NCBI GenBank assembly: GCA_029007825.1
Contig: JAQXIO010000019.1
Span: 1,259-65,258, forward strand
Reading direction: 5' to 3'
From: Bacteroidales bacterium
GTDB taxonomy: Bacteria > Bacteroidota > Bacteroidia > Bacteroidales > JAQXIO01
DNA: 64,000 nt
In this document: piece by piece, positions 1,413 through 53,120 of the stretch
How positions within the stretch are numbered: the first letter of the stretch is position 1
How the letters are laid out: the number at the start of each line of letters is the position of its first letter
Notes under the pieces: model-generated
What the model was told of the DNA's origin: nothing
Database searches by the model: none
Seen by the model: the letters and a program-made list of their open reading frames with translations, nothing else
Translations under genes and position numbers: made by a program

Positions 1413-1463
1413 GCGTTTTGAATTTAAGAATTCTTGTGTTTGTAAAAATAACAATAATATCTG

Positions 1464-4564: not shown

Positions 4565-4761
4565 TTTACATACAGAGATTTAATCGTGTACTAAAGGAAA
4601 TAAACAGTTTGTAATACAAATTTAATGCTTATTCTTTGATATTTATCTCTTACTGTTTTATTTTACTCTGTTCATGCTGCCGGCAATCCGATTTTATGTT
4701 ACTTTGCAGAGTGTATAAACAGAGTTTTTCATACATATTGAATATTTTATTTGTTTCCTGA

Positions 4762-5580: not shown

Positions 5581-5669
5581 AAAAAGGGGTAAGTGAATCG
5601 TGAGTTTTATGTAGATTTAGCCTTATTATGTAATTTGTCCGGAACATAAGACCAGAAAAGCGGTCGACA

Positions 5670-6245
5670 TTATTTATTACGTATGAGATTGATGAATTCT
5701 TCCCGTGTTTTGGCTTGATTGAAGGCTCCGGTAAAATCGGAAGTAGTCGTGACGGAGTTTTGCTTTTCAGCTCCTCTCATTTGCATACACATGTGTTGGG
5801 CCTCGATTACAACCATAACTCCGAGGGGTTTTAATGCGTCTTGAATACAATCTTTTATTTGAGTGGTGAGTCTTTCCTGTATTTGTAAACGGCGGGCAAA
5901 TACGTCAACGACACGGGCGATCTTGCTGAGGCCTGTTATATACTGATTGGGAATGTATGCTACATGGGCTTTCCCGAAGAATGGAAGCATATGGTGCTCG
6001 CAAAGAGAGAAAAAATCAATGTCTTTCACGATTACCATTTGCTTGTAATCTTCTTTGAAAATGGCGGAAGATAATATTTTCTGAGGGTCCTGGCTATATC
6101 CTTTCGTGAGATACATCATTGCTTTGGCAACTCGTTCCGGTGTCTTTACCAACCCTTCCCGTTCCGGATCTTCTCCCAGTAATTTAATTATGGATTTATA
6201 GTTTGAAGCAAGTGCTTCCCGGTTGTTTTCCTCGTTTTCTAACAT
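5670..6245 (-). CDS. folE: GTP cyclohydrolase I
   Basis: 191 aa. [22 protein letters not shown] and [13 protein letters not shown] are FolE zinc and active-site signatures. Confidence 0.95.
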
Positions 6246-6254
6246 ACCTGATAT

Positions 6255-6725
6255 TTATAGAGGGATTGTAATTTCTTCACGGACAACATACATCTCTTTT
6301 CCGAAATTCGGAAACTCTTTCATTAATTGCCGGAGAAGAAGGTAGGCCTCTTCGTAATTTCTGAAATCACCTACCCGAAGCCGCCAGAAAGGCGATTTGT
6401 AAGTAATATAGGTAGATATTTCACTATTGAATTCTTTTACTAATTGCTCTTTCTTGAAAGCTTCTTCCTTCGACAGGCGCTGGTTGTTTCCTGAAAAAAC
6501 CTGTACACGGTATCCTGAAATTTTAATGTGTTCTTTTTCAGTACTCGGGCTGGATGCTGAATTTCGCTTTCCGATTATGTCCGAGATTTGAGCATCCTGA
6601 TGAATTGTCACTTTTCCTTCACCGAATTCGTTTTTTTGTATTTTATCGATAATCGAATTCTGGTTCTGACTAAACCCTGCTGAAATGACGGTCCAAAAAA
6701 GAAAACAAACCAGTTGAAACTTCAT
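6255..6725 (-). CDS. SPOR domain-containing protein (secreted)
   Basis: Signal peptide plus a C-terminal SPOR repeat (GYRVQVFSGNN...WRLRVGDFRNYEEA). Start moved to ATG 6725 (MKFQLV...) because a -7 box at 6741..6748 overlaps the longer track start at 6743. Confidence 0.8.
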   Translation of the reverse strand: MKFQLVCFLFWTVISAGFSQNQNSIIDKIQKNEFGEGKVTIHQDAQISDIIGKRNSASSPSTEKEHIKISGYRVQVFSGNNQRLSKEEAFKKEQLVKEFNSEISTYITYKSPFWRLRVGDFRNYEEAYLLLRQLMKEFPNFGKEMYVVREEITIPL

Positions 6726-6740
6726 GATAGCTATTTTTTG

Positions 6741-6748
6741 CAAAGTTA
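6741..6748 (-). promoter_or_regulatory. Bacteroidota -7 box (TAACTTTG on the minus strand) upstream of the SPOR/folE genes
   Basis: Matches the TAnnTTTG consensus. It lies 16 nt upstream of ATG 6725. Confidence 0.45.
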
Positions 6749-6763
6749 CGAAAAAGAGTCGGT

Positions 6764-6805
6764 TAAAAAAAAAGTCTGCAATTTGTAAATTGCAGACTCT
6801 TTTTA
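6764..6805 (-). terminator. Rho-independent terminator downstream of tpiA
   Basis: Stem AGTCTGCAATTT (6773..6784) pairs with AATTGCAGACT (6788..6798), with A/T runs on both sides. A T-tract follows on the minus strand. Confidence 0.7.
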
Positions 6806-6817
6806 TGGAATTGAAAA

Positions 6818-7576
6818 TTAATTGAATGCTTCTATAATAGGCATAAATTTGGCAGCTTCCAGAGAGGCTCCACCAATAAGACCTCCGTCAACGTCCGGAT
6901 TTGAGAAAAGTTCTTTTGCATTTGAGGCATTACAGCTTCCTCCGTAAAGGATAGAAGTATTATCTGCTATTTCTTTTCCGTATTTTTCTGCCAGTGTTTT
7001 CCGTATAAATGCATGCATTTCCTGAGCCTGTGCAGCAGTTGCCGTTTTTCCTGTTCCGATTGCCCAAACAGGTTCGTAAGCTAAAACGATTTTGCCGAAA
7101 TCTTCTGCTGATAAATTGAAAAGAGATTCTTCAATTTGTTTTTTTACCACATCAAAATGTTTTCCGGATTCTCTTTCTTCCAGAACTTCTCCGATACAGA
7201 AAATAGGAGTAAGTTTATTTTCTAATGCCAGTAACACTTTGTTTTTTAGTATTTCGCTTGTTTCTCCGTAGTATGCACGACGTTCGGAGTGTCCCAAAAT
7301 AACATATTTGGCACCTGTCGAAGCAACCATAGCCGCAGAAACTTCTCCTGTATATGCGCCGGATGCTTTATCTGCTGCATTTTCTGCCGCAACTCCGATG
7401 ATAGAACCTTTAACTTCTTCCACAACACTAGCTAGGTGGATAAAAGGTGTACCAACAATTACTTCGCAATTTACTTTTTTACCGGCAAGTGCGTCTTTTA
7501 CGCTTTTAGCCAATTCGATACCCTCTTGAAGGGTTTTGTTCATTTTCCAGTTTCCTGCAACAATGTTCTTTCTCAT
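6818..7576 (-). CDS. tpiA: Triose-phosphate isomerase
   Basis: 252 aa. Motifs [27 protein letters not shown] and IGGASL. Confidence 0.95.
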
Positions 7577-7587
7577 ATTTCAATAAA

Positions 7588-8844
7588 TTAAGAATGATTT
7601 GAGTTTTCTTTTTTCTTTTTCTTTATCATTGCCGTACCGAGAGGTACAATTAACAGTGCGATCGCAATAAGTAGTTGGTTCCTGTTTTTTTTATGTGCAA
7701 TTACTTCAAACGGAATATCCTGCAAAGGCTTTTCAAAAAAATCTTCACCCGGGATCTGAAATGCAGACCATTTGTATAATATTTTGCCTTCTTTTATGAG
7801 CAAGAGTCCGGAATTTGAACGTATAATCGTTTTTAATAGAATTTCATCGGCTTTTAAAAATGGATAATCCGCTCCTGTGTTATCTTTCCATATTTCGATT
7901 TCAGTATCTGAAGAGGCTGTCACTCCATAAAATTTGTAATGATGCTCTGTAGAATAGTCGTATAAATCATTAATCAAATCGGCCTTTGAGTCATTTGCCT
8001 TTTTCAGATTATGGGAGATTAACAGAAATGTGAAATCGGGAGAGGTAAGTATTTCATCGGTAATGTTTTCTCCTTCTTTATTAAGAAGCACGAATTGTTC
8101 TGAATGTTGTGCATTGCTTGAATTTTTCTCTACCGTTATGGCATCTATGAAGACCCAGGTGGTGTCATCTGCCGGGTAGTTATCAATGGTAAACTCTTTT
8201 TTTATACCCTCTTTTTCATAGATGAAAGTGGTTTCGAACTGTGGTTCTTCCGATGAAGTGTCTACGTCGGAAGAGAGAGGAATCGTCGCTCCTACTTTGT
8301 ATGGCCTGAAATCGATGAGTGGAAGCCCCCATGTTGTACAGTAGACAGATAATCCTATCGGGTATATCGTACATAGAAAGAGAGTAAAGAATGCATGATT
8401 TCTGGGAATCAGGCTGGTGAGTTGCTTGCAATATAGAAAAAGAAGTATGGCGCATCCCAATAATACTATATTCTTCCAGAATGTAGCCCAATTCGATATA
8501 ACCCATGCATCACCGAAGCATCCGCAATCACTTATCGGGTTCTTTATTGCAAGATAAAGAGTGAGAGGGGTCATGATACAAAGGAAAATCAGTGCCAAAG
8601 TAGATGAAAATTTTCTGAAGATTCCCAGTAATAAGAGTAATCCGATAAGAAACTCGATAGTAGAGAGTAAAATTGAAAGTGGGAAGGCCAGCATACTGAA
8701 AAAATCAAGTCCGAAAGCATGCAGATAGTCTCCTATTTTGTAGGTTGTTCCTAATGGATCAATGCTTTTTACAAATCCCGAAAAAACGAAGAGGACTCCT
8801 ACGATGATTCGGGCTGTTTCTGCTATTACTTTAGTTTTTTTCAT
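7588..8844 (-). CDS. MauE/DoxX-family membrane protein with a C-terminal thioredoxin-fold-like domain
   Basis: 418 aa. N-terminal TM helices carry SDCGCFGD (MauE/DoxX type). The soluble C-terminal domain has no CxxC. Confidence 0.65.
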   Translation of the reverse strand: MKKTKVIAETARIIVGVLFVFSGFVKSIDPLGTTYKIGDYLHAFGLDFFSMLAFPLSILLSTIEFLIGLLLLLGIFRKFSSTLALIFLCIMTPLTLYLAIKNPISDCGCFGDAWVISNWATFWKNIVLLGCAILLFLYCKQLTSLIPRNHAFFTLFLCTIYPIGLSVYCTTWGLPLIDFRPYKVGATIPLSSDVDTSSEEPQFETTFIYEKEGIKKEFTIDNYPADDTTWVFIDAITVEKNSSNAQHSEQFVLLNKEGENITDEILTSPDFTFLLISHNLKKANDSKADLINDLYDYSTEHHYKFYGVTASSDTEIEIWKDNTGADYPFLKADEILLKTIIRSNSGLLLIKEGKILYKWSAFQIPGEDFFEKPLQDIPFEVIAHKKNRNQLLIAIALLIVPLGTAMIKKKKKENSNHS

Positions 8845-8850
8845 CCGGAA

Positions 8851-9393
8851 TTATTCTCCAAATTCTAATTTAATTAATCCGAACAGGGCATAGTTAACCA
8901 TGTCCATATAATTAGCTCCGATTCCTTCTGAGACCAGAGTTTTGCCTTTATTATCTTCAATCTGTTTAGTCCGGTATATTTTCATGAGAATCAAGTCTGT
9001 GTAGGAACTGATCCGCATAGATCTCCATGCTTCATCGTAGTCGTGATTTTTCGCATACATCAGTTCTTTAGTTTCCGTCATATATTTATCATAGAGGGCT
9101 ATTGCCTCGTCATTCGATATATCGACGGATTCTATATGGTTCAGTTCTAATTGAATGAGGCCGATGATTCCATAATTTACGATTGCGATGAATTCTCCTT
9201 TTATACCTTCAGCAATTTTGCTTTCTTCTTTTGTTTCGAGTGTGCGGATCCGGTTTGCTTTAATGAATATCTGGTCGGTAACGGATTCGGGCCGCATAAT
9301 TCTCCATGAAGCGCCGTAATCTTTTAACTTATTGCAGAATAGTGTTCTACATATGTTGATAACGTACTCAAACTGATCCCGTGTCTTTTCCAT
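8851..9393 (-). CDS. DUF1599-type protein (family name from memory)
   Basis: 180 aa with an internal duplication (KDYGASWRIMRP... and HDYDEAWRSMRIS...). It sits in the conserved Bacteroidales neighbourhood with tpiA and folE. Confidence 0.6.
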   Translation of the reverse strand: MEKTRDQFEYVINICRTLFCNKLKDYGASWRIMRPESVTDQIFIKANRIRTLETKEESKIAEGIKGEFIAIVNYGIIGLIQLELNHIESVDISNDEAIALYDKYMTETKELMYAKNHDYDEAWRSMRISSYTDLILMKIYRTKQIEDNKGKTLVSEGIGANYMDMVNYALFGLIKLEFGE

Positions 9394-9464
9394 TGCAATA
9401 ACGCTCTATTTTCTGCAAAAATACACAATAAATCGCAGATTTCTATTCGGTTCGGTATAAAAAC

Positions 9465-9499
9465 AATGAGGTATGGTTACAAAATAGCCATACCTCATT
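9465..9499 (-). terminator. Rho-independent terminator downstream of the M23 peptidase gene
   Basis: Stem AATGAGGTATGG (9465..9476) pairs with CCATACCTCATT (9488..9499). On the minus strand it is followed by GTTTTTAT. Confidence 0.65.
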
Positions 9500-9518
9500 A
9501 GAAAGTTGTTACATCAGG

Positions 9519-10430
9519 TTAATTGCATCGGATAGATTGTCCGATACGCAATACGCTTGATGTAGAGAGTTTATTTAATTTACACAATTGAGTCACAGTC
9601 GTCCTGTATCTTTTTGCGATTACATAAAGAGAATCGCCTTGTTTTACTTTATGATAAACAATACCTTCGTTATTTGGTGTCCCGTAAACAGGTAGAGTTG
9701 CTTTTCTCTTTACAAAAGTGTAGGAGTCTTTGTGTGGCACAAAGTTTTGGAAGTCTATGATTTCTTCAGGATTTATAGCAATTCCTAAGAAGCGTGTTTC
9801 AAAATGGAGATGAGAACCGGTAGAACGACCGGTATTGCCGCCCAATGCGATTGGTTGTCCGGCTTTGATGATATCGTTTTCTTTTACGAGGAACTTGGAT
9901 AAATGACCGTAAACGGTTTCCAATCCGTTGTTATGGCGTATAACCAGATAGTAGCCATAGCCTTTTCTTTCGTAATGGCGGATACGGACTTTTCCGTCGA
10001 AAGCAGCAACAATAGTATCTCCTACCTGTACTTTTAAATCGATCCCTTTGTGTTGCCGATAACGCCGGGGGCCGAATCTGGATGTGATTTTACCCTCGAC
10101 CGGTATAATAAAAGAGGAACAATCGACAGTAAAAGAATCCGGAATTTGTACCCCTTTATAGGGATTAACCCGTTCATTTGTCCAAGAGGCATAAAGATCG
10201 TCTGCAGGAAACATTTCCTCTTCTTCGGCGATTGCATCTTCCAGAATCAGAGAGTCCAGTAGTTCGATTTCTCTTCTTATGGGAGAGTTTGCTGCAAATT
10301 TTGTTTGTTTATCGTTTTCAATAACTACCCGTATGGAGCCTGTACTTATTTTATCGTCTGCATATCCTTGTTTGAAAGAGGATAGAGAGATAATCGAAAG
10401 GACAAGAATTATAGATGTTTTTATGTTCAT
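9519..10430 (-). CDS. M23 family metallopeptidase with a C-terminal LysM domain
   Basis: 303 aa. Signal peptide, then HKGIDL and GNTGRSTGSHLHFE (LytM metal ligands). LysM region: YHKVKQGDSLYVIAKRYRTTVTQLCKLNKL. Confidence 0.9.
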   Translation of the reverse strand: MNIKTSIILVLSIISLSSFKQGYADDKISTGSIRVVIENDKQTKFAANSPIRREIELLDSLILEDAIAEEEEMFPADDLYASWTNERVNPYKGVQIPDSFTVDCSSFIIPVEGKITSRFGPRRYRQHKGIDLKVQVGDTIVAAFDGKVRIRHYERKGYGYYLVIRHNNGLETVYGHLSKFLVKENDIIKAGQPIALGGNTGRSTGSHLHFETRFLGIAINPEEIIDFQNFVPHKDSYTFVKRKATLPVYGTPNNEGIVYHKVKQGDSLYVIAKRYRTTVTQLCKLNKLSTSSVLRIGQSIRCN

Positions 10431-10446
10431 TTGTTATAAATATCCT

Positions 10447-10908
10447 TTATTTTTCATCGCTTGCGTAAATGCTGTCTATCAATTTAAACTGATAATCGAA
10501 TAACTCTTCTTTTTTAAAGAAGCGGTTGATTTCAATTTCCGCATTTTCCGTAGAATCCGAAGCGTGTATAATATTTTCCTGAGTGCTCATGCTATAATCG
10601 CCACGAATTGTTCCTGCGGGAGCCAATCGTCCGTTTGTCGGGCCAATCAGTGTCCGCACAACGCTTACAGCATCTTTTCCTTCCCAACACATTAGTACTA
10701 CAGGACATGAACTCATTGCTTTTTTCAGAAGTCCGAAAAAGGGCTTATCTTTTAAATGGCTATAATGTTCGCTTAGTATTTGATCGTCAAGCCATTGCAT
10801 TTTTAGCCCTACAAGGAAAAGTCCCTTTTTTTCCAGTCTTGAAGTCACTTCCCCGATAAGTCCTCTCTGAACGGTTCCGGGTTTTAGGATAACAAGAGTT
10901 CTCTCCAT
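10447..10908 (-). CDS. ndk: Nucleoside-diphosphate kinase
   Basis: 153 aa. MERTLVILKPG, GTIRGDY and NIIHASDS (catalytic His). Confidence 0.9.
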   Translation of the reverse strand: MERTLVILKPGTVQRGLIGEVTSRLEKKGLFLVGLKMQWLDDQILSEHYSHLKDKPFFGLLKKAMSSCPVVLMCWEGKDAVSVVRTLIGPTNGRLAPAGTIRGDYSMSTQENIIHASDSTENAEIEINRFFKKEELFDYQFKLIDSIYASDEK

Positions 10909-11086
10909 AAAGTACTGTATATGTTCAAAGGGTTACTTCAAAATTAATATTTTCAAACAAAGAAAGCGCCTTTTCAGTTCGTAAAAAAACTGTAGTAAAT
11001 CATAGAAAATGATAAATTGATACGTAATATTCTGATATATAAGTGATTGACTATTATATGTTTTACAGCATATAAATAGGGAATGA

Positions 11087-13180
11087 TTAGCTTATTTGTC
11101 CCCATTCGACTTCTTTCCCGAAAAGATCGTTTAACCTTTTCCGTAACAGAGCATTGCTTTGCAGGGATAGTTGGGGATCAGCAGCAAGAATTTCCGTTGC
11201 AATGTCTCGGGCGTATTGGAGGACTTGTCCGTCTTTCGCCAGGTTTGCAATATGTAAGTTTATAGGTATTCCGCTTTGCTGCGTACCTTCCAAATCACCC
11301 GGTCCGCGCATTTTCAAGTCTGCCTCGGCAATTTCAAATCCGTCGTTGGTCGAAGTCATCACTTCGATACGTTTACGTGTTTCTTCCGAGATCGAATCGG
11401 ATGTCACCAGTATGCAATATGATTGTTCGGCACCTCTTCCGACGCGTCCCCGCAGCTGATGCAACTGGGAAAGTCCGAAACGTTCGGCATTCTCGATTAG
11501 CATTACGGAGGCATTCGGGACGTTCACTCCTACTTCGATTACCGTAGTGGCCAGCAGGATTTGAGCGCTACCTTCTACGAACCGAGCCATTTGCAGTTCT
11601 TTCTCTGCGGGTTTCATTTTGCCGTGTATCATGCTTACCTGATAGTCGGGGAATATTTCTTTAATATGTTCGAACCCGTCTTCGAGATTTTTGTAATCCA
11701 GATTTTCGCTTTCTTTAATGAGAGGGTAAACGATATATACCTGGCGTCCCAACTCTATCTGTTTACGAATGGAACGGTAGAGGCCTGCACGCTGCCCGTC
11801 GAAAACATGGATTGTCTGAATCGGTTTTCTTCCGGGAGGAAGTTCATCGATCACCGAAACATCGAGGTCACCGTAAAAAGTCATGGCTAAGGTACGTGGA
11901 ATAGGGGTTGCTGTCATGACAAGAACGTGGGGGGCGACGGTTCCTTTATTCCATAATCTGGCACGTTGGGCGACACCGAATCTATGTTGTTCGTCTATAA
12001 TAGCCAGACCCAGATGTTGAAACAGAACTTCATCTTCAATAAGAGCATGTGTCCCTATTAGAAGGTGAATATCGCCGTTTCGTAGTCCTGTGTGTATAAT
12101 TTCCCTCTCCTTCTTTTTAGTTGATCCGGTCAGAAGGGCTACATTTACTCCGATACCGTCAAGTAGAGTGGACAAGGTTTCGAAGTGCTGGGTTGCCAGT
12201 ATTTCGGTCGGTGCCATTAATGCTGCCTGAAATCCGTTGTCGATTGCAATCAGCATAATCATAAGGGCAACCAATGTTTTTCCGCTTCCTACATCGCCTT
12301 GAAGAAGGCGGTTCATTTGTTTTCCGGTGCGGAAATCGTTCCGGATTTCCTTGATCACCCGTTTTTGGGCATTGGTTAGTTCAAACGGAAGTTTTTTTTC
12401 GTAGAAAGAGTAAAAGAGGTTTCCTACTTTGGTAAATACATGTCCTTGTATTTTTTCTTTTCGTAAAACAGAGCGTTGCAAAATGTTCAGTTGTAAATAA
12501 AAAAGTTCTTCGAACTTAAACCGGTATTGTGCTTCTCTGAGTGATACAGGAGATGTCGGGTTGTGTATTTGCCAAAGAGCCTCATTGATTTCCATTAAGT
12601 TGGCTTTTTTCCTGAGAGCCATAGGCAGGGTTTCCGGGTATTCCCGGTTCAGGGATTCCAGTAACGGAAGAATGATTTTGTGCAGGTTTTTCGATGTTAG
12701 AAAAGAGCTTTTCATCCGTTCCGTCGTGTTGTAAGACGGTTGCAGCGCTTTTCCGTAGAGGGAATTTTCCGTTACTGTTTCTATTTCCGGATGAGCTATG
12801 TTATAATGAGATCCGAAAAGCGTGGGCTTTCCGAATACGATATATTCTTCTCCGGGGCGGTATTTATTGGTAATGAATTTGATGCCTTTGAACCATACCA
12901 GTTCGATGGTGTCGGTTCCATCTGAGAACTCGGCGATCAGTCGTTTATTCCGACCTTCTCCGGTTGTAGAAAAATACTCGATCCGTCCTCTTATCTGTAT
13001 ATAGGGCATTTGTCCGTTTATCTCTTTGATCCGATAAAATCGACTTCTGTCAACGTATTTATATGGGAAGTAGTATAATAGGTCTTCCACGGAACGAATG
13101 TTGAGTTCTTTGTTGAGAAGCAGCGCTCGCTGGGGGCCTACTCCTTTAAGGTATTTTATGTCACGTCCCGAATAATCCAA
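11087..13180 (-). CDS. recG: ATP-dependent DNA helicase RecG
   Basis: 697 aa. N-terminal wedge/OB region, Walker A GDVGSGKT, DEQHRFG box, and C-terminal helicase motifs (QLRGRVGRG). Confidence 0.95.
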   Translation of the reverse strand: MDYSGRDIKYLKGVGPQRALLLNKELNIRSVEDLLYYFPYKYVDRSRFYRIKEINGQMPYIQIRGRIEYFSTTGEGRNKRLIAEFSDGTDTIELVWFKGIKFITNKYRPGEEYIVFGKPTLFGSHYNIAHPEIETVTENSLYGKALQPSYNTTERMKSSFLTSKNLHKIILPLLESLNREYPETLPMALRKKANLMEINEALWQIHNPTSPVSLREAQYRFKFEELFYLQLNILQRSVLRKEKIQGHVFTKVGNLFYSFYEKKLPFELTNAQKRVIKEIRNDFRTGKQMNRLLQGDVGSGKTLVALMIMLIAIDNGFQAALMAPTEILATQHFETLSTLLDGIGVNVALLTGSTKKKEREIIHTGLRNGDIHLLIGTHALIEDEVLFQHLGLAIIDEQHRFGVAQRARLWNKGTVAPHVLVMTATPIPRTLAMTFYGDLDVSVIDELPPGRKPIQTIHVFDGQRAGLYRSIRKQIELGRQVYIVYPLIKESENLDYKNLEDGFEHIKEIFPDYQVSMIHGKMKPAEKELQMARFVEGSAQILLATTVIEVGVNVPNASVMLIENAERFGLSQLHQLRGRVGRGAEQSYCILVTSDSISEETRKRIEVMTSTNDGFEIAEADLKMRGPGDLEGTQQSGIPINLHIANLAKDGQVLQYARDIATEILAADPQLSLQSNALLRKRLNDLFGKEVEWGQIS

Positions 13181-13181
13181 G

Positions 13182-13853
13182 TTATTGTCGTTTTAAATAG
13201 GTTTCAGCCCATAACAAATCCGAGGGGTGGGTGATTTTTATATTTTCCCGGTTTCCGTCAATAAGGGTAATTTCTTTTCCCAAGGCTTCTACTACGGAAG
13301 CGTCATCAGTGAAAAGCTCGTCGTAAGGTTGTGAATAGGCCTGTTTCAGAAGTGCCAGATTAAAAGTCTGGGGCGTTTGTACAATACGATAAGACGAACG
13401 GTCGGCAACTTTACTGCCTTTCGGGAGAATGAAACGTATGGAGTCCGTGAGGGGTAATACAGGAATTGCGCTTCCTGTCTTTAAAGCCGTGGAGAAAGCA
13501 TTTTTTATTACTTGTGGAGCCGGAAACGGGCGAACACCATCATGGATTGCAACTACTCCTTCTGTTTCGGAAATAGAATTCAGAGCGTTTTTTACCGATT
13601 GAAAACGGGTATTTCCTCCTTCAATAATGGAACAGGGAATATCGAACCGATACTTTTTGCAGAGAGTATTCCAGTAGGTAATGTGGTCTTTGGGTAAAAC
13701 CAAAGTGATCCGGATATCAGGCTGAATAGTGTAGAATTGCTGTAACGTATGCATTAACAGAGGTTTGTCTCCTATTATCATAAATTGTTTGGGCAATTCC
13801 CCTCCCATTCTTAAACCTTTTCCTCCCGCTACGACAATTAAAAATTTATTCAT
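13182..13853 (-). CDS. ispD: 2-C-methyl-D-erythritol 4-phosphate cytidylyltransferase
   Basis: 223 aa. VVAGGKGLRMGGELPKQF N-terminus and IHDGVRPF. Confidence 0.9.
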   Translation of the reverse strand: MNKFLIVVAGGKGLRMGGELPKQFMIIGDKPLLMHTLQQFYTIQPDIRITLVLPKDHITYWNTLCKKYRFDIPCSIIEGGNTRFQSVKNALNSISETEGVVAIHDGVRPFPAPQVIKNAFSTALKTGSAIPVLPLTDSIRFILPKGSKVADRSSYRIVQTPQTFNLALLKQAYSQPYDELFTDDASVVEALGKEITLIDGNRENIKITHPSDLLWAETYLKRQ

Positions 13854-14062
13854 TCTCCGTTATCTTCTAAATTGGCAAGAATCTTTTTTACTTCGTCATT
13901 CGTGCTGTTCAATTTTTTTTTGCAGGCGTTGATGAGTTGTACAGCTTCTTTTACTTTTTGAAGCAGTTCGTCGATTCCATACCGGTTATTTTCTATATTG
14001 GAAGCAATTTCTTCGAGTGAGCCGATCGCTTCTTCAAAATTCAATTCATTCTTTTTTCCCAT
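13850..14062 (-). CDS. xseB: Exodeoxyribonuclease VII small subunit
   Basis: 70 aa. FEEAIGSLEEI helix-hairpin. Located immediately downstream of xseA, with a 4-nt ATGA overlap onto ispD. Confidence 0.85.
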   Translation of the reverse strand: MGKKNELNFEEAIGSLEEIASNIENNRYGIDELLQKVKEAVQLINACKKKLNSTNDEVKKILANLEDNGE

Positions 14063-14071
14063 AACGTCAGA

Positions 14072-15322
14072 TTATTGGATTGTCGCTTTTTTACTTCCGT
14101 CGGAAAAACGTAACTCGACGGTTTGTTCTCTATCTAATAATTTAGAGCTTTCTATTACTTTCCCTTCTTTTAGAACAAGGGCATATCCTTTCTGGAGGAT
14201 GTAAGACGGTGAAGCCATACGAAAAAACTGATCCAGTTCTTTTAACCGGAATGATAAAGAATCGAATTCCCGGGTTATTGCACTTTTAAGGGATATTTCG
14301 GTTCGGATTATGTGATTGTTTTGTTTCGAGATGATTGCAGAGCTTGCCCGAATGATATTGGCAGAAAGAAATTGGAGTTCCTTCTGTGTTTCGTTTATTT
14401 TATCCGTGACTGCCGATGTAATGGTCTGTGATAAATAATTTAGCCTTTGAGCACTTTCTGTTACGCGGTTAATAAGGAAATCGGCAACGGCTGTAGGCGT
14501 TTTTAACCGTGTATGAGCAACCAGATCGACAATGGAGTCGTCCCGTTCATGTCCTATCCCAGTTAGTATGGGGAGTGGGAACTGTGCACAGTTGGCCGCC
14601 AGATCATATGAATCGAAAGAGTTGAGGTCGGACGTCGCACCACCTCCTCTGATGATAACAATTGCGTCGAACAGTTCAATGTTTTTATGGATAGATTCTA
14701 ATGCCTGAATGATGGAAGCTTCGGTTTTTTCTCCCTGCATAGTCGCGGCGAATAGTTTTACAGCAAAGAGAGAGTTCCAGGGAGAACTGTCCAGATGACT
14801 CATAAAATCACCGTAGCCCGCAGCGGAAGGAGACGATATGACTGCAATGCGTACGGGCAGCAAAGGCAGATTGAGTTCTTTATTCATAGAAAATATCCCT
14901 TCTTCCTGTAATTGGGCAATGATCTGGCTTTTTCGCAGATGCATTTCTCCGATTGTGTAAGAAGGCTCGATCTCTTCTATCGATAGACTGAATCCATACA
15001 ATTCGTGGAAGTCAACGGAAACCCTTATCAATATTTTAATTCCTGCAGCGAACGTTTCTCCTGTCCGGCTCTCAAAAAGATATTTTATGAATGGGTATTT
15101 GTTCGCCCAGATTACGGCACGGGCTTTTGCTGTCATTTGGTTTGTATCCGGTCTTTTTTCAATAAGTTCCAGATAGCAGTGGTGAGAAAAACTGTTTTCT
15201 TTTAATTCTCCGATTTCGGCCGTAATCCAATACGTATCCATCATAGTCGCGCGTATTGTGTCACGGACCATGAGGTTCAGTTCAGAGAGTGTGAATATCT
15301 GAGATGGACAATTTTCCTTCAT
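14072..15322 (-). CDS. xseA: Exodeoxyribonuclease VII large subunit
   Basis: Track ORF 14072..15358. Start chosen at MKENC (ATG 15322). OB-fold N-terminus, IIRGGGATSDL and GIGHERD motifs. Confidence 0.9.
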   Translation of the reverse strand: MKENCPSQIFTLSELNLMVRDTIRATMMDTYWITAEIGELKENSFSHHCYLELIEKRPDTNQMTAKARAVIWANKYPFIKYLFESRTGETFAAGIKILIRVSVDFHELYGFSLSIEEIEPSYTIGEMHLRKSQIIAQLQEEGIFSMNKELNLPLLPVRIAVISSPSAAGYGDFMSHLDSSPWNSLFAVKLFAATMQGEKTEASIIQALESIHKNIELFDAIVIIRGGGATSDLNSFDSYDLAANCAQFPLPILTGIGHERDDSIVDLVAHTRLKTPTAVADFLINRVTESAQRLNYLSQTITSAVTDKINETQKELQFLSANIIRASSAIISKQNNHIIRTEISLKSAITREFDSLSFRLKELDQFFRMASPSYILQKGYALVLKEGKVIESSKLLDREQTVELRFSDGSKKATIQ

Positions 15323-15327
15323 ACTTA

Positions 15328-15335
15328 CAAATGTA
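15328..15335 (-). promoter_or_regulatory. -7 box (TACATTTG on the minus strand) directly upstream of xseA
   Basis: TAnnTTTG match only 5 nt from ATG 15322. Confidence 0.4.
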
Positions 15336-15540
15336 TGAAATCGAAAAAAGATTGGCAAATGTGTTTTTTTCTCTTTTTTCTTTTAATTAGGGAAATTAAA
15401 TCTTTAATTTGATAATGGCGAGAGGGTAGTTTGTCATATAGATGAAATTGGATCGTCTGCCTGGAGTAACATCTCCGTTGACATAAAATACATGGATGTA
15501 AATGCTGTTTTGATATTTATTAAATAAAAAGGTTAAGGCA

Positions 15541-15576
15541 ATAAAAAACACAGACAATTTTGCCTGTGTTTTTATT
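15541..15576 (-). terminator. Rho-independent terminator downstream of the HIT gene
   Basis: AAAAACACAG (15544..15553) pairs with CTGTGTTTTT (15564..15573). A T-run follows on the minus strand. Confidence 0.6.
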
Positions 15577-15590
15577 CGTTTTTTCTGAGA

Positions 15591-15983
15591 TTAAAAAGCA
15601 TCTCTTATTTTTTCAGCAATGGTTTCAAATTCTTCCTTGGTTAAGGATAATTTTTCTTTCCCGAAATAGATATCCGATTCTTTGTTAATAGGAACCAGAT
15701 GAATGTGCGTATGAGGCACTTCGAGTCCTATTACAGAAAGTCCGATACGTTTGCACGGAATGGCTTTTTCCATTGCTTCGGCTACTTTTTTTGCAAAAAG
15801 AACCAATCTGGAAAGTTCATTGTCATCTAATTTAAAGATATAGTCGACTTCCTTTTTAGGAATTACTAAAGTATGGCCTTTTGCCAACGGATTAATATCT
15901 AAAAAAGCAAAATGCATTTCATCTTCCGCTATCTTATAACAGGGTATTTCTCCTTTTATAATTTTACTGAAAATTGTTGCCAT
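15591..15983 (-). CDS. HIT family (histidine triad) protein
   Basis: 130 aa. HTHIHLVP histidine triad. Confidence 0.9.
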   Translation of the reverse strand: MATIFSKIIKGEIPCYKIAEDEMHFAFLDINPLAKGHTLVIPKKEVDYIFKLDDNELSRLVLFAKKVAEAMEKAIPCKRIGLSVIGLEVPHTHIHLVPINKESDIYFGKEKLSLTKEEFETIAEKIRDAF

Positions 15984-48754: not shown

Positions 48755-49351
48755 ATGATAAACTACGTTGATAGAATGGCCGACGCATTGGTCGACGTGC
48801 TGAAATATTCTAATTCTGAGGTGGAATGGGTGGAAGCGAGTGATCTCAAACAAAATGACGGCGTGAAACCCGAGTGGTTTTATCCGGCAATAGAGAGTGC
48901 CGAGTATTCTGAAATAACCTCTATTTTGCAATATACGCAGCAGCAGGCTCTATTTGATGAGGAAATAGGAGAATTATTGTTGGGCATTGCATTGGTAGAA
49001 ATGAAGCATTATGCTGCAGTAAGAGATGCTATTGTTGCGTTGGGCGGAAAATTACCTCAACCGTATAGCAGTACAAATGTTAAGATGGGAGGTAATGCCA
49101 TAGAAGCATTGGTATTGGCTGCACATTCTGAAATTGCAACTATCGATTTTTATAAATCCGTAGAGTCTAATCTTACAACCCAGAGTGATTCGGTAAATAT
49201 TGCACGTAAATTGCTGACGAAGCTGATTGCGGATGAAAGTCTTCATCTGAAGTTGTTAAATGACCGTTTGAAAAGTATGATTAACGATGAGAAGAAATAC
49301 AATGTTGTAATGGATCAGATGTTAGCTAAAGTGAAATTGTATACGAAATGA
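48755..49351 (+). CDS. Ferritin-like di-metal protein (CotJC / manganese-catalase-family-like)
   Basis: 198 aa. Two ExxH motifs (VEMKH and DESLH) and EITSILQYTQQQ, giving a ferritin-like four-helix-bundle pattern. Confidence 0.65.
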   Translation: MINYVDRMADALVDVLKYSNSEVEWVEASDLKQNDGVKPEWFYPAIESAEYSEITSILQYTQQQALFDEEIGELLLGIALVEMKHYAAVRDAIVALGGKLPQPYSSTNVKMGGNAIEALVLAAHSEIATIDFYKSVESNLTTQSDSVNIARKLLTKLIADESLHLKLLNDRLKSMINDEKKYNVVMDQMLAKVKLYTK

Positions 49352-49394
49352 TTTTAGGACTATTTTTTAATTTTGACATTAAAAAGTAACATGT

Positions 49395-49436
49395 ATGAAA
49401 AGTGGTAAAAAAATTTTACCACTTTTCATTTTCTTG
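49395..49436 (+). terminator. Rho-independent terminator of the ferritin-like gene
   Basis: Perfect 16-bp inverted repeat: ATGAAAAGTGGTAAAA (49395..49410) pairs with TTTTACCACTTTTCAT (49414..49429), followed by TTTCTT. Confidence 0.75.
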
Positions 49437-50008
49437 AGTTTTTTGGCTCACTTTTTTTGAGATAAACTTTAATTGAAATTTTATATAAATGTTGATGCTT
49501 AACTGTAAAATAAATTGGATATAAAAATGTGATAAATAAGTTTAATTCTTATATTTGAAAAATAAAGAACAATGTGTGTATTATTGGATGCTGAAACAAT
49601 CTTGGAAGTATAATTGGATTGAAACAGCAATTTTATTTGGCAATGTAATTGACGAATTCGGGGAGGAAGCTCAAGCATTTAGTTTGTAAATTTTTTTTAG
49701 AATATCAAGTTGAGAATTAGACTATCGAGAATTGTATGCAGAAAACATTGTTGCATAGAGTTCAATCACCGAAGTTACTTGAAATTTTATCAGCCTCTTT
49801 TTATAGCACGATATAGTGGATTTCGTTTTGTATAGAAATACTTTTATATCGTTGAACGAAAGAAACAGATTGCATATTAAAATATAATTTTTTCATTTAA
49901 TCGATTAAAGATGCTAAATTTAAATTCCTATAAAGATTTGAATTTCGTTATTTATAAAATTGAATAATGGAAGTATATTGAAACGTAAAATAGTTTTCAA
50001 GTTGATAA

Positions 50009-50104
50009 TTAGCTTCCTATGAACGGATTCTTGAAATACTTATGAATTCGGGAGATTTTATTTTCTTTCTTGATGGGTATGATGAAGTTAACTCTTCAAA
50101 ATAA
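50009..50104 (+). pseudogene. Relic of a NACHT/STAND-type NTPase gene (Walker B region only)
   Basis: A 31-codon open fragment bounded by stops reads LASYERILEILMNSGDFIFFLDGYDEVNSSK. FIFFLDGYDEV fits the NACHT Walker B signature hhhhDGhDE. There is no start codon context and no Walker A nearby. Confidence 0.45.
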
Positions 50105-50213
50105 AGAAAGATCACCAAGAAATAAGATGATTTAGTTAATTAATTGTTATAAGGAATCAATTAGAGAATTATAGCATTCAGCCATTGACATATTGGCCAA
50201 ATAAAAATGAATT

Positions 50214-52736
50214 ATGAGTTGTGATAATGCCCTATTAAAGTTAGAAGAGTTTATTAGAGAATACGATTCTTATAAAGCAACTGATTTGTCTGAATCAGAT
50301 ACTCGGTCAAAAATAATTGACAATCTACTAATTAACATACTCGGATGGTCAGAAGAAAATATAACTAGAGAAGGACATGTTGGTTCTGGTTTTTTTGATT
50401 ATAAAGTATCGCTAGCTGGCTTCAATGTAATTGTAGAAGCTAAAAAACAATTTAATGAGTTTATTTTACCAACCACTACAAGAAGGCAAACTAAATTAAG
50501 GACATTATATGCTGAAAACAAAGAGGTAATAGATCAAATTAGATCATATCTATTTGACATTGGATATGATACAGGAATAATTACAAATGGCAAGCAATTT
50601 ATTATTGCTAAATTTGTCAATAATAACGGAGAACCGTGGAAGGATAATGACAGTATAATTTATAGAAGTGTTGATGATATTAGAAACCATTTTGTTGAAT
50701 TTTGGAATAATCTATCCAAAGAAAGTATTATTGAAAATGGAGGAATTAAATTACTAATCAAGGCTCAGATTAATTTTTCAAAAACAATATTATCAACAAT
50801 TCTTGAAAAAGATAACGAAATTACAAGAAATGATATTGGTTCAAAAATAGTTTCAATAATTAATAATGTTTTCGGAGAAATTTACAAAGTTGATAGTTCC
50901 GAAGATAATATCACATTTATCAAAGCTTGTTTTGTTGAAAACAAAGAAGTAATTAAGAATAAAGCTGAATTAAACGGCCTGTTTAGTGATGATGCCCCTT
51001 CTTTTGGAACAGTAATTAAAGCAAAAAACTATAAAAGTATAGCGGATCAGATAGGTACTGAAATAAATTCAGAAACTACAATATCACAAAGACAGCCAAC
51101 TCCAAGACCCGTAATTATTATTGGGTCAAAAGGTGCTGGTAAAACTACTTTTATTAACTATTTATTTAAAAATGATTTATCTAATAATGGGTTATCTGAT
51201 CATCCATACATTTATGTCAATTTAATGAAATACTACAATGGTACTTCTGAAATTGATTTCGAGAATATGGCCAAAGATTCAATAAATCAATTAAATGATA
51301 ACTACCCTGATTTAGAGATAAATAGCATAAAGGTTTTAAAAAGAATTTACATCAAAGAAATTAATGAAAAAGATAAAGGTGTATGGAACTATCTTAAGGA
51401 AAATGAAAAAACGAAATACTCTGAAAAATTATCCAAATTTATCGAAGATAAGACACTCTGTTCTCAAGAACATTTAGAAGCAATAAATATATATTTTACA
51501 CGAGAAATCCATAAAAGGCTAATTATTATTTTTGATAATGCAGACCAATTGTCAGATGATATACAGGAAAAAGTGTTTCTTTATGCTTGCTCTTTAAATA
51601 CTAAGGCTAAGTTCGGAACCTTTATTTCTTTAAGAGAAGGATATTATTATAAATGGAGAAATCAAACGCCTTTTAATGCATTTGAGAGTAATGTATACCA
51701 TATTTCTGCCCCAGATTATGGTACAATACTCGCTAAACGCATAGAATATGCAATTGGTTTAATAAAAAGTAATAAGGATAATTTATTCACAGGGGTTAGT
51801 GGAGAGTATGCTGGTAAGAAAGTCAATATAGATTCAACTAAGATAGAAGAATTTTTTGAAGGTATAAAAGGATCTCTATTTGGAGTACAAAATAGTCCAG
51901 TGCTTGAATTTATTCGCTACTATACTTTTCCTAATATAAGAGAAGGATTAAGGTTATTTAAAATATTTCTAACATCTGGATATACAGATGTGTCGGAGTA
52001 TGTTTTAAGAGTCGTATTTAATCAAACATATAATCAGAATATATCAATTCCATTACATGAATTTATCAAAACCGTAGCTTTAGAAAATAAACTTTATTAT
52101 AATCATCAATCTAGTAGTATTCAAAATATATTTTATCCAACACATAATAGTAAAGATTATTTTGTAAAATATTGGATATTAAAAAGATTAGGTAATCAAC
52201 TTTCTTTAGAAGGTAATGTAAGCAAATTTGTTGGCTACAACTCATTTATCGATGAATTTTGCGAATATGGCTATAAAAAGGACGCATTGAATCAAGAGTT
52301 AGAATATTTATTATCTAATGAATTGATTGATGCAGATACTGTGTTGTCTGATATAAAATGGGCTCAACTACCTAACGATAATTTTAGCCTTACTATAACA
52401 TCAAAAGGTTTATATTACATAGAAAATTTAGTTAATACATTTTCCTACATCGATTTAATCGCTCAAGATACTCCAATTTTTGATAAGGATAAGTTCGAGT
52501 TGATAAGATCAGTCTTCCCATTGTGTGATAAAAATTCAAAAAGGAACATGAATGAACGACTAAAATTTGTTGAAACATTTATTGAGTATTTAAGTTCTAT
52601 AGAACAAACTCTTAACCCAAACATTCTTATCAAAAAATATGGTAGTGTTGTGTCAAACATAAGGGCTAATGGATTAATTGCAAATATAGAACGTATAAAA
52701 GAGAAGTTAGATAGGGCAAACTCTAGTGAAGTTTAA
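50214..52736 (+). CDS. Orphan PD-(D/E)xK (HsdR_N/Mrr-like) nuclease fused to a P-loop NTPase and a winged-helix-like C-terminal region; candidate defence protein
   Basis: 840 aa. Nuclease motifs: SESDTR (res 26-31), FFDY (D62), IVEAKK (E75/K77), ITNG (res 123-126). Walker A GSKGAGKTT (res 304-312, nt 51123..51149). Walker B RLIIIFDNAD (res 435-444, nt 51516..51545). About 370 aa of C-terminal region with no catalytic motif. Very AT-rich codon usage. Confidence 0.8.
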   Translation: MSCDNALLKLEEFIREYDSYKATDLSESDTRSKIIDNLLINILGWSEENITREGHVGSGFFDYKVSLAGFNVIVEAKKQFNEFILPTTTRRQTKLRTLYAENKEVIDQIRSYLFDIGYDTGIITNGKQFIIAKFVNNNGEPWKDNDSIIYRSVDDIRNHFVEFWNNLSKESIIENGGIKLLIKAQINFSKTILSTILEKDNEITRNDIGSKIVSIINNVFGEIYKVDSSEDNITFIKACFVENKEVIKNKAELNGLFSDDAPSFGTVIKAKNYKSIADQIGTEINSETTISQRQPTPRPVIIIGSKGAGKTTFINYLFKNDLSNNGLSDHPYIYVNLMKYYNGTSEIDFENMAKDSINQLNDNYPDLEINSIKVLKRIYIKEINEKDKGVWNYLKENEKTKYSEKLSKFIEDKTLCSQEHLEAINIYFTREIHKRLIIIFDNADQLSDDIQEKVFLYACSLNTKAKFGTFISLREGYYYKWRNQTPFNAFESNVYHISAPDYGTILAKRIEYAIGLIKSNKDNLFTGVSGEYAGKKVNIDSTKIEEFFEGIKGSLFGVQNSPVLEFIRYYTFPNIREGLRLFKIFLTSGYTDVSEYVLRVVFNQTYNQNISIPLHEFIKTVALENKLYYNHQSSSIQNIFYPTHNSKDYFVKYWILKRLGNQLSLEGNVSKFVGYNSFIDEFCEYGYKKDALNQELEYLLSNELIDADTVLSDIKWAQLPNDNFSLTITSKGLYYIENLVNTFSYIDLIAQDTPIFDKDKFELIRSVFPLCDKNSKRNMNERLKFVETFIEYLSSIEQTLNPNILIKKYGSVVSNIRANGLIANIERIKEKLDRANSSEV

Positions 52737-52990
52737 ATAAGAAAGCATGTTGGAGATTAGTTCTGCATCCTTTTTGACTGACATCATACTTTGTATAGAT
52801 GAGAATATTCTATCTATTACCTTATCAATAATGCAAAAAAAAAATTTGAAGCCACAATTCTCTTGATAGAGATACTTAATATTCAGTCTTATAAAACATA
52901 AAAGAAAATCCGAATTTATAATAAAATAATTCTTAATCTATTTATTTTGATTCAATCATTTATCCACAAGTGGGGAAAATCCAACCAAAT

Positions 52991-53030
52991 AAAAAGCTAA
53001 GTGATTGACTATTCAATACTTAGCTTTTTA
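52991..53030. terminator. Hairpin terminator downstream of tRNA-Leu, which also closes the islet
   Basis: AAAAAGCTAAGT (52991..53002) pairs with ACTTAGCTTTTT (53019..53030). A T-run follows on both strands. Confidence 0.65.
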
Positions 53031-53033
53031 TTG

Positions 53034-53120
53034 TGGTACCCAGAGCCGGGATCGAACCGGCATGGAAGTGAATCCACTGGTGTTTGAGACCAGCGCGTCT
53101 ACCAATTCCGCCATCTGGGC
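53034..53120 (-). tRNA. tRNA-Leu (anticodon CAA), class II with a long variable arm and an encoded CCA
   Basis: Reverse complement: GCCCAGATGGCGGAATTGGTAGACGCGCTGGTCTCAAACACCAGTGGATTCACTTCCATGCCGGTTCGATCCCGGCTCTGGGTACCA. Anticodon stem CTGGT/ACCAG with loop CT-CAA-AC; T-arm CCGG-TTCGATC-CCGG; acceptor GCCCAGA/TCTGGGT. Confidence 0.9.

Follow-up and report, generated by a model that had tools for sequence, protein, structure and literature searches.

The closest described relative of the gene analysed here is DS-14 of E. coli (WP_040091717.1; working identifier RMOR), which comes from the DefensePredictor study (Science 2026, PMC13092281, Table S6), where it is flagged as defensive (TRUE) and placed in the category 'Remote defense homolog'. 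In that study DS-14 was cloned and was active as a single gene in the test host MG1655, with log10 protection values of 4.70 against Bas50, 3.70 against Candy and 1.15 against RB69 (Table S7). Its domains are given there as a PDDEXK nuclease (BpuSI_N, residues 27-167, with D65 and ExK at 76-78; HHpred BpuSI_N probability 0.99) and an AAA+ ATPase (ORC1 7MCA, residues 270-569), with replicated given as TRUE (Table S8), and its best remote defence match by HHblits is NLR_like_bNACHT09 (coverage 0.54, probability 99; PMC13092281). We analysed a stretch of 64,000 nucleotides (nt) from a Bacteroidales bacterium (assembly GCA_029007825.1, contig JAQXIO010000019.1, positions 1,259 to 65,258; hereafter the window), which holds at 50214..52736, on the forward strand, a gene for a protein of 840 amino acids (aa). 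An earlier note, made from the sequence of the window, had described this gene as an orphan fusion of nuclease, NTPase and winged helix and as a candidate novel, Avs-like anti-phage system.

We found that the window protein and DS-14 are homologous from end to end. By BLASTP the two align at E=1e-37 with 22% identity, residues 10-809 against 4-786, with all motifs in register, and they share the order of PD-(D/E)xK nuclease, middle region, ORC-like AAA+ module, winged helix and tail (nuclease 1-180, AAA+ 296-625 and winged helix 650-735 in the window protein; PDDEXK 27-167 and AAA+ 270-569 in DS-14). The catalytic residues of both enzymatic domains are kept in DS-14, D62, E75, K77, K310, D441 and D444 (window numbering) being present in 37 of 37 sequences of an alignment that includes it. 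Furthermore, DS-14 matches each of the 242 long proteins that the window protein had retrieved. Intermediates bridge the two clades; P0219, for instance, shares 37% identity with DS-14 and 25% with the window protein. We reached DS-14 by a blastn search with a Klebsiella homologue, which found E. coli copies in 8 of 5,426 complete genomes; they are annotated 'P-loop NTPase fold protein' and lie in a Rac-type prophage between ydaU/ydaV and DUF1367/1364/1133 genes. Both proteins are encoded by single genes. They differ in host (Enterobacteria for DS-14, Bacteroidota for the window copy) and in setting: DS-14 itself lies on a mobile element, the Rac prophage, whereas the window copy adjoins a tRNA gene amid housekeeping genes.

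Because the homology to a validated protein runs from end to end, it supports the defence reading and does not support novelty. We put at about 0.75 the probability that the window gene belongs, as a divergent Bacteroidota representative, to the DS-14 family, a group of stand-alone nuclease-AAA+ proteins with an anti-phage role, and that it works as a nucleotide-gated switch. Judged from sequence, it is highly probable that the gene is a defence gene of this family, and the anti-phage role proposed in the earlier note stands as very probable, since DS-14 blocks phages. The same note had thought the gene novel and could not place it in a named family, and it had listed assignment to an already named system as grounds for giving up the novelty; the E. 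coli homologue, DS-14, is such a system. The gene is thus a member of a known, recently found family and not a new class of system. What was a 'hypothetical protein' of a gut-type Bacteroidales genome becomes a probable phage-defence gene tied to a validated E. coli system.

In the mechanism that we propose, the NTPase would act as a nucleotide-dependent switch. The winged helix and the tail would read a phage-specific cue, either a phage protein or a feature of DNA, and the cue would bring about an NTP-bound conformational change or oligomerisation. The nuclease domains would thereby be brought together and DNA cleavage licensed, which would halt phage replication directly or by killing the cell. 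An NLR-like sequence of trigger, oligomerisation and cleavage is a tentative version of this scheme, to which we give a little less than an even chance. A specific trigger is favoured by the narrow phage range of DS-14, and the involvement of DNA by the lack of a repeat sensor together with the ORC-like fold. The parts of the gene, with their coordinates in the window, are as follows (pLDDT, predicted local distance difference test).

50214..52736, + strand: complete open reading frame (ORF) of 840 aa with ATG start, DS-14-family nuclease-AAA+ protein (ORF call, homology)
50214..50753, + strand: PD-(D/E)xK nuclease domain, residues 1-180 (Pfam, AlphaFold2, Foldseek, conservation)
within the nuclease domain, + strand: ESDTRSK helix, residues 27-33 (motif)
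50397-50399, + strand: D62, nuclease catalytic residue
50436-50444, + strand: E75-x-K77, nuclease catalytic residues
50535-50549, + strand: Q108xxxY112, nuclease QxxxY motif
within the nuclease domain, + strand: TNGxQ, residues 124-128 (motif)
50754..51098, + strand: conserved middle region of uncertain structure, residues 181-295 (conservation; pLDDT 41-62; without family match)
51099..51773, + strand: AAA+/STAND-like P-loop NTPase base, residues 296-520 (Pfam, Foldseek, conservation)
51123-51149, + strand: Walker A, with K310 at 51141-51143
51516-51545, + strand: Walker B, with D441 at 51534-51536
51633-51635, + strand: R474 of the SxR motif, in FISLRE
51738-51740, + strand: R509, invariant
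51774..52088, + strand: helical lid, residues 521-625 (AlphaFold2 helices 541-623)
51939-51941, + strand: R576 in PNIREGLRLF, invariant, in the lid; aligns to DIRNALRM of DS-14
52161..52418, + strand: winged-helix domain, residues 650-735 (AlphaFold2 model)
52419..52733, + strand: C-terminal helical tail, residues 736-840 (AlphaFold2 helices 743-839, pLDDT 76-95)

The DS-14 family proved far larger and wider than one E. coli prophage gene implies, with members in many bacterial phyla and in Bathyarchaeia. A word-indexed search with the window protein yielded over 440 significant homologues, almost all of them 820-850 aa long and covering 97-100% of the query; the closest are a 100% match in a Bacteroidales metagenome-assembled genome (PUB21_02190) and an 89% match in Odoribacter lunatus. 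An exhaustive search of 1.84 billion cluster representatives (50% identity level) gave 341 clusters at E<=1e-30, rising to 902 at E<=1e-10, whose members are about 800-900 aa long and whose full-length alignments reach down to about 24% identity. Among species-representative genomes, the close clade belongs to Bacteroidota, with outliers in Fibrobacter and Neomarinimicrobiota, and relatives that share 22-28% identity come from Chloroflexota, Planctomycetota, Actinomycetota, Proteobacteria, Omnitrophota and Bathyarchaeia. The label 'orphan' therefore holds in the sense that there is no conserved partner gene (see below) and fails in the sense that there are hundreds of full-length homologues. 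Eight proteins of about 800 aa from the exhaustive search (P0170, P0180, P0183, P0188, P0202, P0208, P0212 and P0218) match in two stretches, the best of them only over residues ~1-325 at about 30% identity, which suggests a sister lineage whose C-terminal half has diverged or been exchanged. In a fold search of viral proteins (BFVD), an unnamed viral protein of 840 aa, A0A8D4GM15, aligned with the full model over 768 columns (E=3e-4, probability 0.85) and, going by the model, may be a phage-encoded member of the family; that search otherwise gave generic AAA+, KAP and RFC matches only.

We compared the window protein with its homologues in two alignments. The first contains 38 full-length homologues at 42-89% identity, and the counts out of 38 below refer to these members. 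Invariant in all 38 are E27, D29, T30, R31, S32, K33, D62, E75, A76, K77, Q108, Y112, N125, G126 and Q128 in the nuclease, and G304, G307, G309, K310, D441, N442, D444, Q445, S472, R474, E475, G476, P573, R576 and G578 in the NTPase and lid. The second contains 37 sequences down to 20% identity, including DS-14 and E. coli, Klebsiella, Shewanella, actinobacterial and archaeal members; here D62, E75, K77, Q108, Y112, N125, G126, K310, D441, N442, D444, R509 and R576 are present in 37 of 37 and R474 is kept in 32. On these alignments, the motifs are conserved far past chance expectation. Structural and biochemical study of the family would be worthwhile, with D62, E75, K77, Q108, Y112, K310, D441, D444, R509 and R576 as an invariant set for mutagenesis. 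The ratio of nonsynonymous to synonymous substitution rates between the window copy and the 89%-identical Odoribacter copy is 0.10, which indicates that the window copy is intact and under purifying selection. The likeness of these two copies at the DNA level (87.5% identity, window 50206-52725 against 9993-12512 of the Odoribacter locus) is confined to the ORF, opening 8 nt before the ATG and closing 11 nt short of the last letter of the stop codon, and the flanks are unrelated. The unit that moves or recombines seems to be a cassette the size of the ORF, minus the promoter.

The positions that the earlier note had given for the ORF and its motifs were all borne out: SESDTR (26-31), D62 in FFDY, E75-A-K77 in IVEAKK and ITNG (123-126), within nt 50289..50591, and GSKGAGKTT (304-312), RLIIIFDNAD (435-444) and FISLRE (470-475). 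The assignment of the N-terminal domain to the PD-(D/E)xK nucleases likewise agrees with its Pfam and Foldseek matches and with the invariance of D62, E75 and K77. HSDR_N_2 matches the window protein at E=6e-4, which is below threshold, and matches 29 of the 38 members, at best with 8.7e-6. In an AlphaFold2 model of residues 1-295, the block means of pLDDT over residues 1-180 are mostly 81-93, with a dip to 61 at 21-30. The leading Foldseek matches of this N-terminal model are all PD-(D/E)xK proteins: BpuSI (3s1s, 6.6e-3) and an HsdR fragment (3h1t, 1.4e-2), then Hjc, RecU, Cas4 and DrdV. With the N-terminal nucleases of HsdR and BpuSI the window protein shares the D...ExK, QxxxY and TNG motifs, the HSDR_N_2 matches and the first Foldseek ranks. 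It differs from them in coupling the nuclease to an AAA+ switch and in having neither an SF2 helicase motor (ResIII/Helicase_C) nor a methyltransferase domain. It is thus not a type I HsdR: the nuclease is of the HSDR_N_2 type, no helicase domain was detected by Pfam or Foldseek, and an AAA+ module stands in its place.

The stretch between nuclease and P-loop had been taken for a linker of ~165 aa. Although poorly modelled, it is itself conserved: S168 is invariant among the 38 members, as are S194, R205, N206, G221, C239, E245, K248, F257, D259 and N272 of residues 181-295. This richness in invariant residues marks residues 181-295 as a functional region and not a spacer.

In the NTPase that follows, a helical insert of about 125 aa separates Walker A from Walker B. 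The window protein has sub-threshold Pfam matches to AAA_14 (1.4e-5), AAA_22 (1.9e-4), AAA_16 and NACHT (9e-3; 16.2 bits against a cut-off of 26.7). Across the 38 members the matches are AAA_22 in 38, AAA_14 in 37, AAA_16 in 36, NACHT and ATPase_2 in 28 each (NACHT at E<=0.01, best 1.1e-8), KAP_NTPase (PF07693) in 21, nSTAND5 in 13 and ORC-CDC6-like (PF24389) in 6. The earlier note had regarded the Walker B sequence, DNAD, as deviant. However, the D-x-x-D spacing of D-N-A-D-Q is what we take to be that of NACHT (DGxDE) and KAP (DDxDR) proteins, so that this Walker B is not aberrant but normal for the clade. S-x-R474 resembles what we take to be the sensor-1 motif of STAND proteins, and PNIR576EGLRLF has a resemblance to the Cdc6 sensor-2 motif GDAR(R/K)A.

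A full-length AlphaFold2 run with the family alignment (pLDDT 80.9; predicted template modelling score 0.73) agreed with the suggestion of a C-terminal winged helix. Residues 651-728 are modelled with a helix-helix-helix-hairpin topology (helices 651-666, 675-684 and 689-701, hairpin strands 705-707 and 725-728; pLDDT 80-93 save for the block 711-720, whose mean is 55). Taken together, Pfam, AlphaFold2, Foldseek and conservation bear out a single polypeptide with N-terminal nuclease, central P-loop NTPase and C-terminal winged helix. Beyond the winged helix, the tail (residues 736-840) is a candidate sensing or oligomerisation module; in the 37-sequence alignment its Y792 is invariant and F743, Y745, T753, R782, F789 and L793 are conserved at 90% or above. 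When the full model was compared with the Protein Data Bank (PDB) by Foldseek, Cdc6 (1fnn) came first at E=9.6e-6 and the top 15 matches were all Cdc6/ORC chains (E=1e-5 to 6e-4), extending over about 500 columns. Lower down came RdrA (6e-4), plant and animal NLRs (~1e-3) and Avs4 (8dgf; 5.4e-3, probability 0.47). As modelled, the AAA+ module of the window protein consists of an ORC/Cdc6-like base, lid and winged helix, a likeness at the level of fold that implies no initiator role. It is shared with the initiators 1fnn and 2qby, and PF24389 in 6 of 38 members and the HHpred ORC1 match of DS-14 point the same way. Unlike those initiators, the window protein carries an N-terminal nuclease and the insert between Walker A and Walker B, and the DS-14 family is distributed sporadically, is mobile and lacks any link to replication genes.

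Several observations weigh against the reading of the window gene as a DS-14-family defence gene. The host MG1655 presumably carries the type I restriction-modification (R-M) system EcoKI, so that DS-14 may yet depend on a type I system. DS-14 is the sole member of the family with a tested phenotype, and the window protein is only 22% identical to it. All Pfam matches of the window protein lie below the gathering threshold, and the Foldseek E-values of the nuclease domain are weak, with none at or below 1e-3. Most loci of the family, the window included, lie outside recognisable defence islands, and a tblastn search of 50,697 phage genomes (INPHARED) found no homologue. Lastly, DS-14 protects against just 3 of the 24 panel phages, is absent from the main text of the study, and has no catalytic mutants, biochemistry or mechanism reported there (PMC13092281).

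The ORC-like fold also raises the possibility of a restriction enzyme that senses a feature of DNA, in the manner of type IV enzymes or of ORC itself. The winged helix and AAA+ module would then bind invading DNA (a modification, an origin or intermediate, or ends), the nuclease would cut it directly and ATP would serve assembly or clamping, with neither cell death nor a protein trigger. This is a possibility that we rate as minor but real. The nearest folds are those of DNA-binding initiators with a winged helix, the nuclease is of a restriction type (HSDR_N_2, BpuSI, HsdR) and a repeat-type protein sensor is absent. The annotation of one homologue reads 'Predicted type IV restriction endonuclease', although that label is the COG name for the nuclease domain only. 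DS-14 acts on RB69, whose DNA we take to be modified, but the protection is weak at 1.1 log; modification-reader domains (SRA, YTH, PUA, DUF262) were not detected in Pfam searches of the window protein and the 38 members. Some members are co-located with type I R-M genes, which would fit a complementation of type I systems such as TgvAB and BrxU provide (PMC11411939).

The earlier note had leaned towards a second possibility, a true Avs/NLR receptor, in which the C-terminus would bind a phage terminase or portal, a STAND NTPase would tetramerise and an Mrr-like nuclease would degrade all DNA, giving abortive infection. The window protein has the tripartite order of effector, NTPase and C-terminal part, and resembles Avs3, Avs4 and the bNACHT proteins in that an N-terminal nuclease effector (Mrr/Cap4-like in Avs) precedes a P-loop switch NTPase with a D-x-x-D Walker B. 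The SxR motif with R474, presumably STAND sensor-1-like, is a further likeness, as are the weak profile matches: NACHT, nSTAND3 and nSTAND5 are matched by 8-28 of the 38 members. Yet the invariant lid residue R576 is one that we take to be an ORC/Cdc6-type feature. The window protein, at 840 aa, is about half the size of Avs proteins and smaller than any known to us, all of which are well over 1,000 aa. It has no TPR or other repeat sensor by Pfam, just ~100 aa follow its winged helix, and its nearest folds are those of ORC/Cdc6, with Avs4 trailing about 48 ORC, Cdc6, RdrA, NLR and other AAA+ chains. None of the 38 members matched a PADLOC Avs or bNACHT model at E<=0.01. Two observations on DS-14 speak for such a receptor, its narrow phage range and its best remote match, NLR_like_bNACHT09 (PMC13092281). 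On balance we consider an Avs/NLR receptor improbable, and the 'Avs/AVAST-like' label of the earlier note is not upheld.

Searches against other collections gave no competing name for the gene. PADLOC 2.0, which lacks a model for the family, named no system when run with the window protein and the 38 members; its weak matches to mad8 (best 4.7e-6), PDC-M28C and PDC-S01 are at the level of the NTPase domain and so do not amount to memberships. NCBIfam did not match the window protein, and sequence searches of the PDB, both single-sequence and profile, gave P-loop-level noise only. KAP proteins (PifA, Tmn, EF_KAP; PMC13552941) share the long insert between Walker A and Walker B, the weak PF07693 matches in 21 of 38 members and the NCBI name of the homologues, 'P-loop NTPase fold protein'. 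They differ in that the window protein has no KAP match of its own, has an N-terminal nuclease as effector and has no transmembrane helices: we found no hydrophobic segment in it, the maximum 19-residue Kyte-Doolittle score being 1.07. The TM-KAP defence proteins (PMC13552941), 16 nuclease-NTPase systems including Hailibu, which is DUF4297-HerA (10.1101/2025.07.10.664194), HEC-01 to HEC-09 (10.1101/2024.01.29.577857), TgvAB (PMC11411939) and the systems of a domain-centric screen (PMC13069673) were each examined, and none of them is the same system as the window gene.

We compared the neighbours of 58 loci with a callable target ORF, taking three genes on each side, by all-against-all BLAST. 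Across these loci there is no conserved partner gene, which agrees with the earlier note and is consistent with single-gene function. The only recurrent neighbour families are HsdM (6), HsdS (5) and HsdR (4). The 110 immediate neighbours match 103 different Pfam families, mostly housekeeping and seen once, with type I and type IIG R-M parts, IstB, Schlafen-AlbA and HTH_3 as the sole repeats. Some homologues stand alone amid housekeeping genes, and plasmid copies adjoin a type II R-M system or sit among insertion sequences. The 89% homologue of Odoribacter lunatus occupies the final position of an integrase/primase/Mob_Pre element (locus positions 393-9850). This element also holds a DUF1016/YhcG nuclease, AAA_25 and a SymE-like toxin, with an HTH_3 regulator directly upstream of the family gene, and appears to be mobilisable and to carry several conflict genes. 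In Flavipsychrobacter, a 44% homologue (10001-12481 in L012, L013 and L057) sits as a moron in the tail module of a P2-like prophage, flanked by the tape-measure gene and gpU, an unusual slot for defence cargo. Horizontal acquisition of the window gene is supported and accords with these mobile contexts and with its low guanine-cytosine (GC) content (see below).

The link to type I R-M genes deserves separate treatment. Of 78 loci, 10 have such genes (hsdM and/or hsdR) no more than 10 kb away, and the association recurs in distant members of about 26% identity in Dehalococcoidia and Marinimicrobium. Four loci (L021, L024, L056 and L063) have the family gene directly between hsdS and hsdR, and a fifth (L069) has it directly after hsdR; the 56% homologue belongs to an operon of the form hsdM-rhuM-hsdS-X-hsdR. 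This recurrent embedding is a hint that the family cooperates with type I restriction. The R-M operon with RhuM and a DS-14-like gene inserted between hsdM and hsdR (L004, L005, L006 and L056, about 600-15750) is preceded by a gene for a 1,624-aa protein with DEAD/Helicase_C and UvrD-helicase domains, and the whole looks like a compact multi-system defence locus of rumen and gut Bacteroidales.

Could the family protein be an accessory or guard of type I R-M, in the way of PrrC, held inactive by the R-M complex and freed by a phage anti-restriction factor, or else an alternative nuclease subunit? The prrC gene occupies the same slot in the prr locus, RloF and TgvAB are likewise R-M-embedded, and the nuclease is of the HsdR N-terminal type. 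However, only a minority of the DS-14 family sits in this slot: about 87% of the loci, the window among them, have no type I genes nearby, and other members lie in prophages or mobile elements without any R-M. The domains of PrrC (an ABC-type ATPase and an anticodon nuclease) and of TgvAB (GmrSD-like) are also unrelated to those found here. In addition, embedding of this kind is common to many unrelated defence genes (10.1101/2024.01.29.577857), and DS-14 is active as a single gene (PMC13092281). We therefore regard a guard or accessory role as quite unlikely.

A speculative combination, which we would not expect to hold, is that the family is an ORC/Cdc6-derived immune nuclease whose winged helix and AAA+ module read a feature of DNA (an origin, an intermediate or a modification), and that its hsdS/hsdR-embedded members serve as guards set off by the inhibition of type I restriction. 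If true, DNA-feature sensing would differ in principle from the protein-pattern recognition of Avs and NLR proteins, and either DNA sensing or a guard role would be a new mechanism for a cross-domain family (bacteria and Bathyarchaeia) that now has a screen-level phenotype. Finally, a role outside defence, as a selfish or addiction module or as an ORC-like replication or maintenance factor of mobile elements stranded in the chromosome, would suit the ORC/Cdc6-like fold, the carriage on integrative elements, plasmids and prophages and the lone window copy without defence neighbours, but is very improbable given the strong purifying selection despite the ORF-only sharing with the Odoribacter copy, the absence of conserved linkage to replication or partition genes, the chromosomal housekeeping contexts where a replication role is implausible and the 4-5 log phage protection given by the homologue DS-14 (PMC13092281).

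The DS-14-family gene of the window lies in a low-GC tract (~49352 to 53033) that contains the gene, an ORF-free leader of 862 nt and a trailer of 297 nt only. The other features of this tract and its edge are as follows.

49352..50213, no strand: AT-rich non-coding leader, 862 nt, GC 0.23-0.29, no ORF above 59 aa (composition, ORF scan)
49395-49429, no strand: perfect hairpin with 16-nt arms and 3-nt loop, terminator-like, in the leader upstream of the 840-aa gene
52988-53032, no strand: perfect inverted repeat with 15-nt arms and 15-nt loop, between the 3' end of the 840-aa gene and the tRNA gene; abuts the tRNA-Leu 3' end
53034..53120, - strand: tRNA-Leu(CAA), right edge of the low-GC island (ARAGORN), 297 nt past the stop codon of the 840-aa gene

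The gene was rightly described in the earlier note as AT-rich and adjoining a tRNA gene. Its GC content is 0.281 (0.19 at third codon positions), against 0.403 for the remainder of the window, and GC climbs from 0.28 to 0.41 at the tRNA-Leu(CAA). The expectation of tRNA-proximal defence islands was not realised, as the window copy is a lone insert amid housekeeping genes, most homologues are solitary and about 13% lie near type I R-M. The flanking genes in the window encode DUF6125, an MGMT-like DNA-binding protein, a 198-aa protein, a sugar-phosphate nucleotidyltransferase, TypA/BipA, a PfkB kinase and an MFS transporter. The 198-aa ORF directly upstream (48755-49351) has no Pfam match at E<=1e-5, and a search through this protein for empty sites or alternative occupants returned nothing, its exact sequence being absent from the contig index. 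We found neither att-type repeats of the tRNA nor direct repeats in the flanks that were convincing, the matches being short, AT-rich and due to chance, and a sigma-70 promoter scan gave results no better than those of shuffled sequences, with a consensus that is in any case unsuited to Bacteroidota.

Within the leader, 50042-50104 reads FIFFLDGYDEV, in a stop-riddled frame (...GDFIFFLDGYDEVNSSK*RKITKK*DDLVN*LL*GIN*RIIAFSH...) that looks like a NACHT Walker B with a degenerate TSR motif after it. The claim of a 'NACHT-like fossil' beside the gene lacks statistical support: a stop-patched 61-aa peptide scores E=0.2 for NACHT and E=0.11 for NPHP3_N in Pfam, which is not significant, although these weak matches fall at the expected profile positions. 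The putative remnant may stem from an earlier gene at this insertion site that has since decayed. The two hairpins flank the low-GC island on either side; that at 49395-49429 has the look of a terminator for the 198-aa gene upstream, and the inverted repeat at 52988-53032 is possibly a terminator as well.

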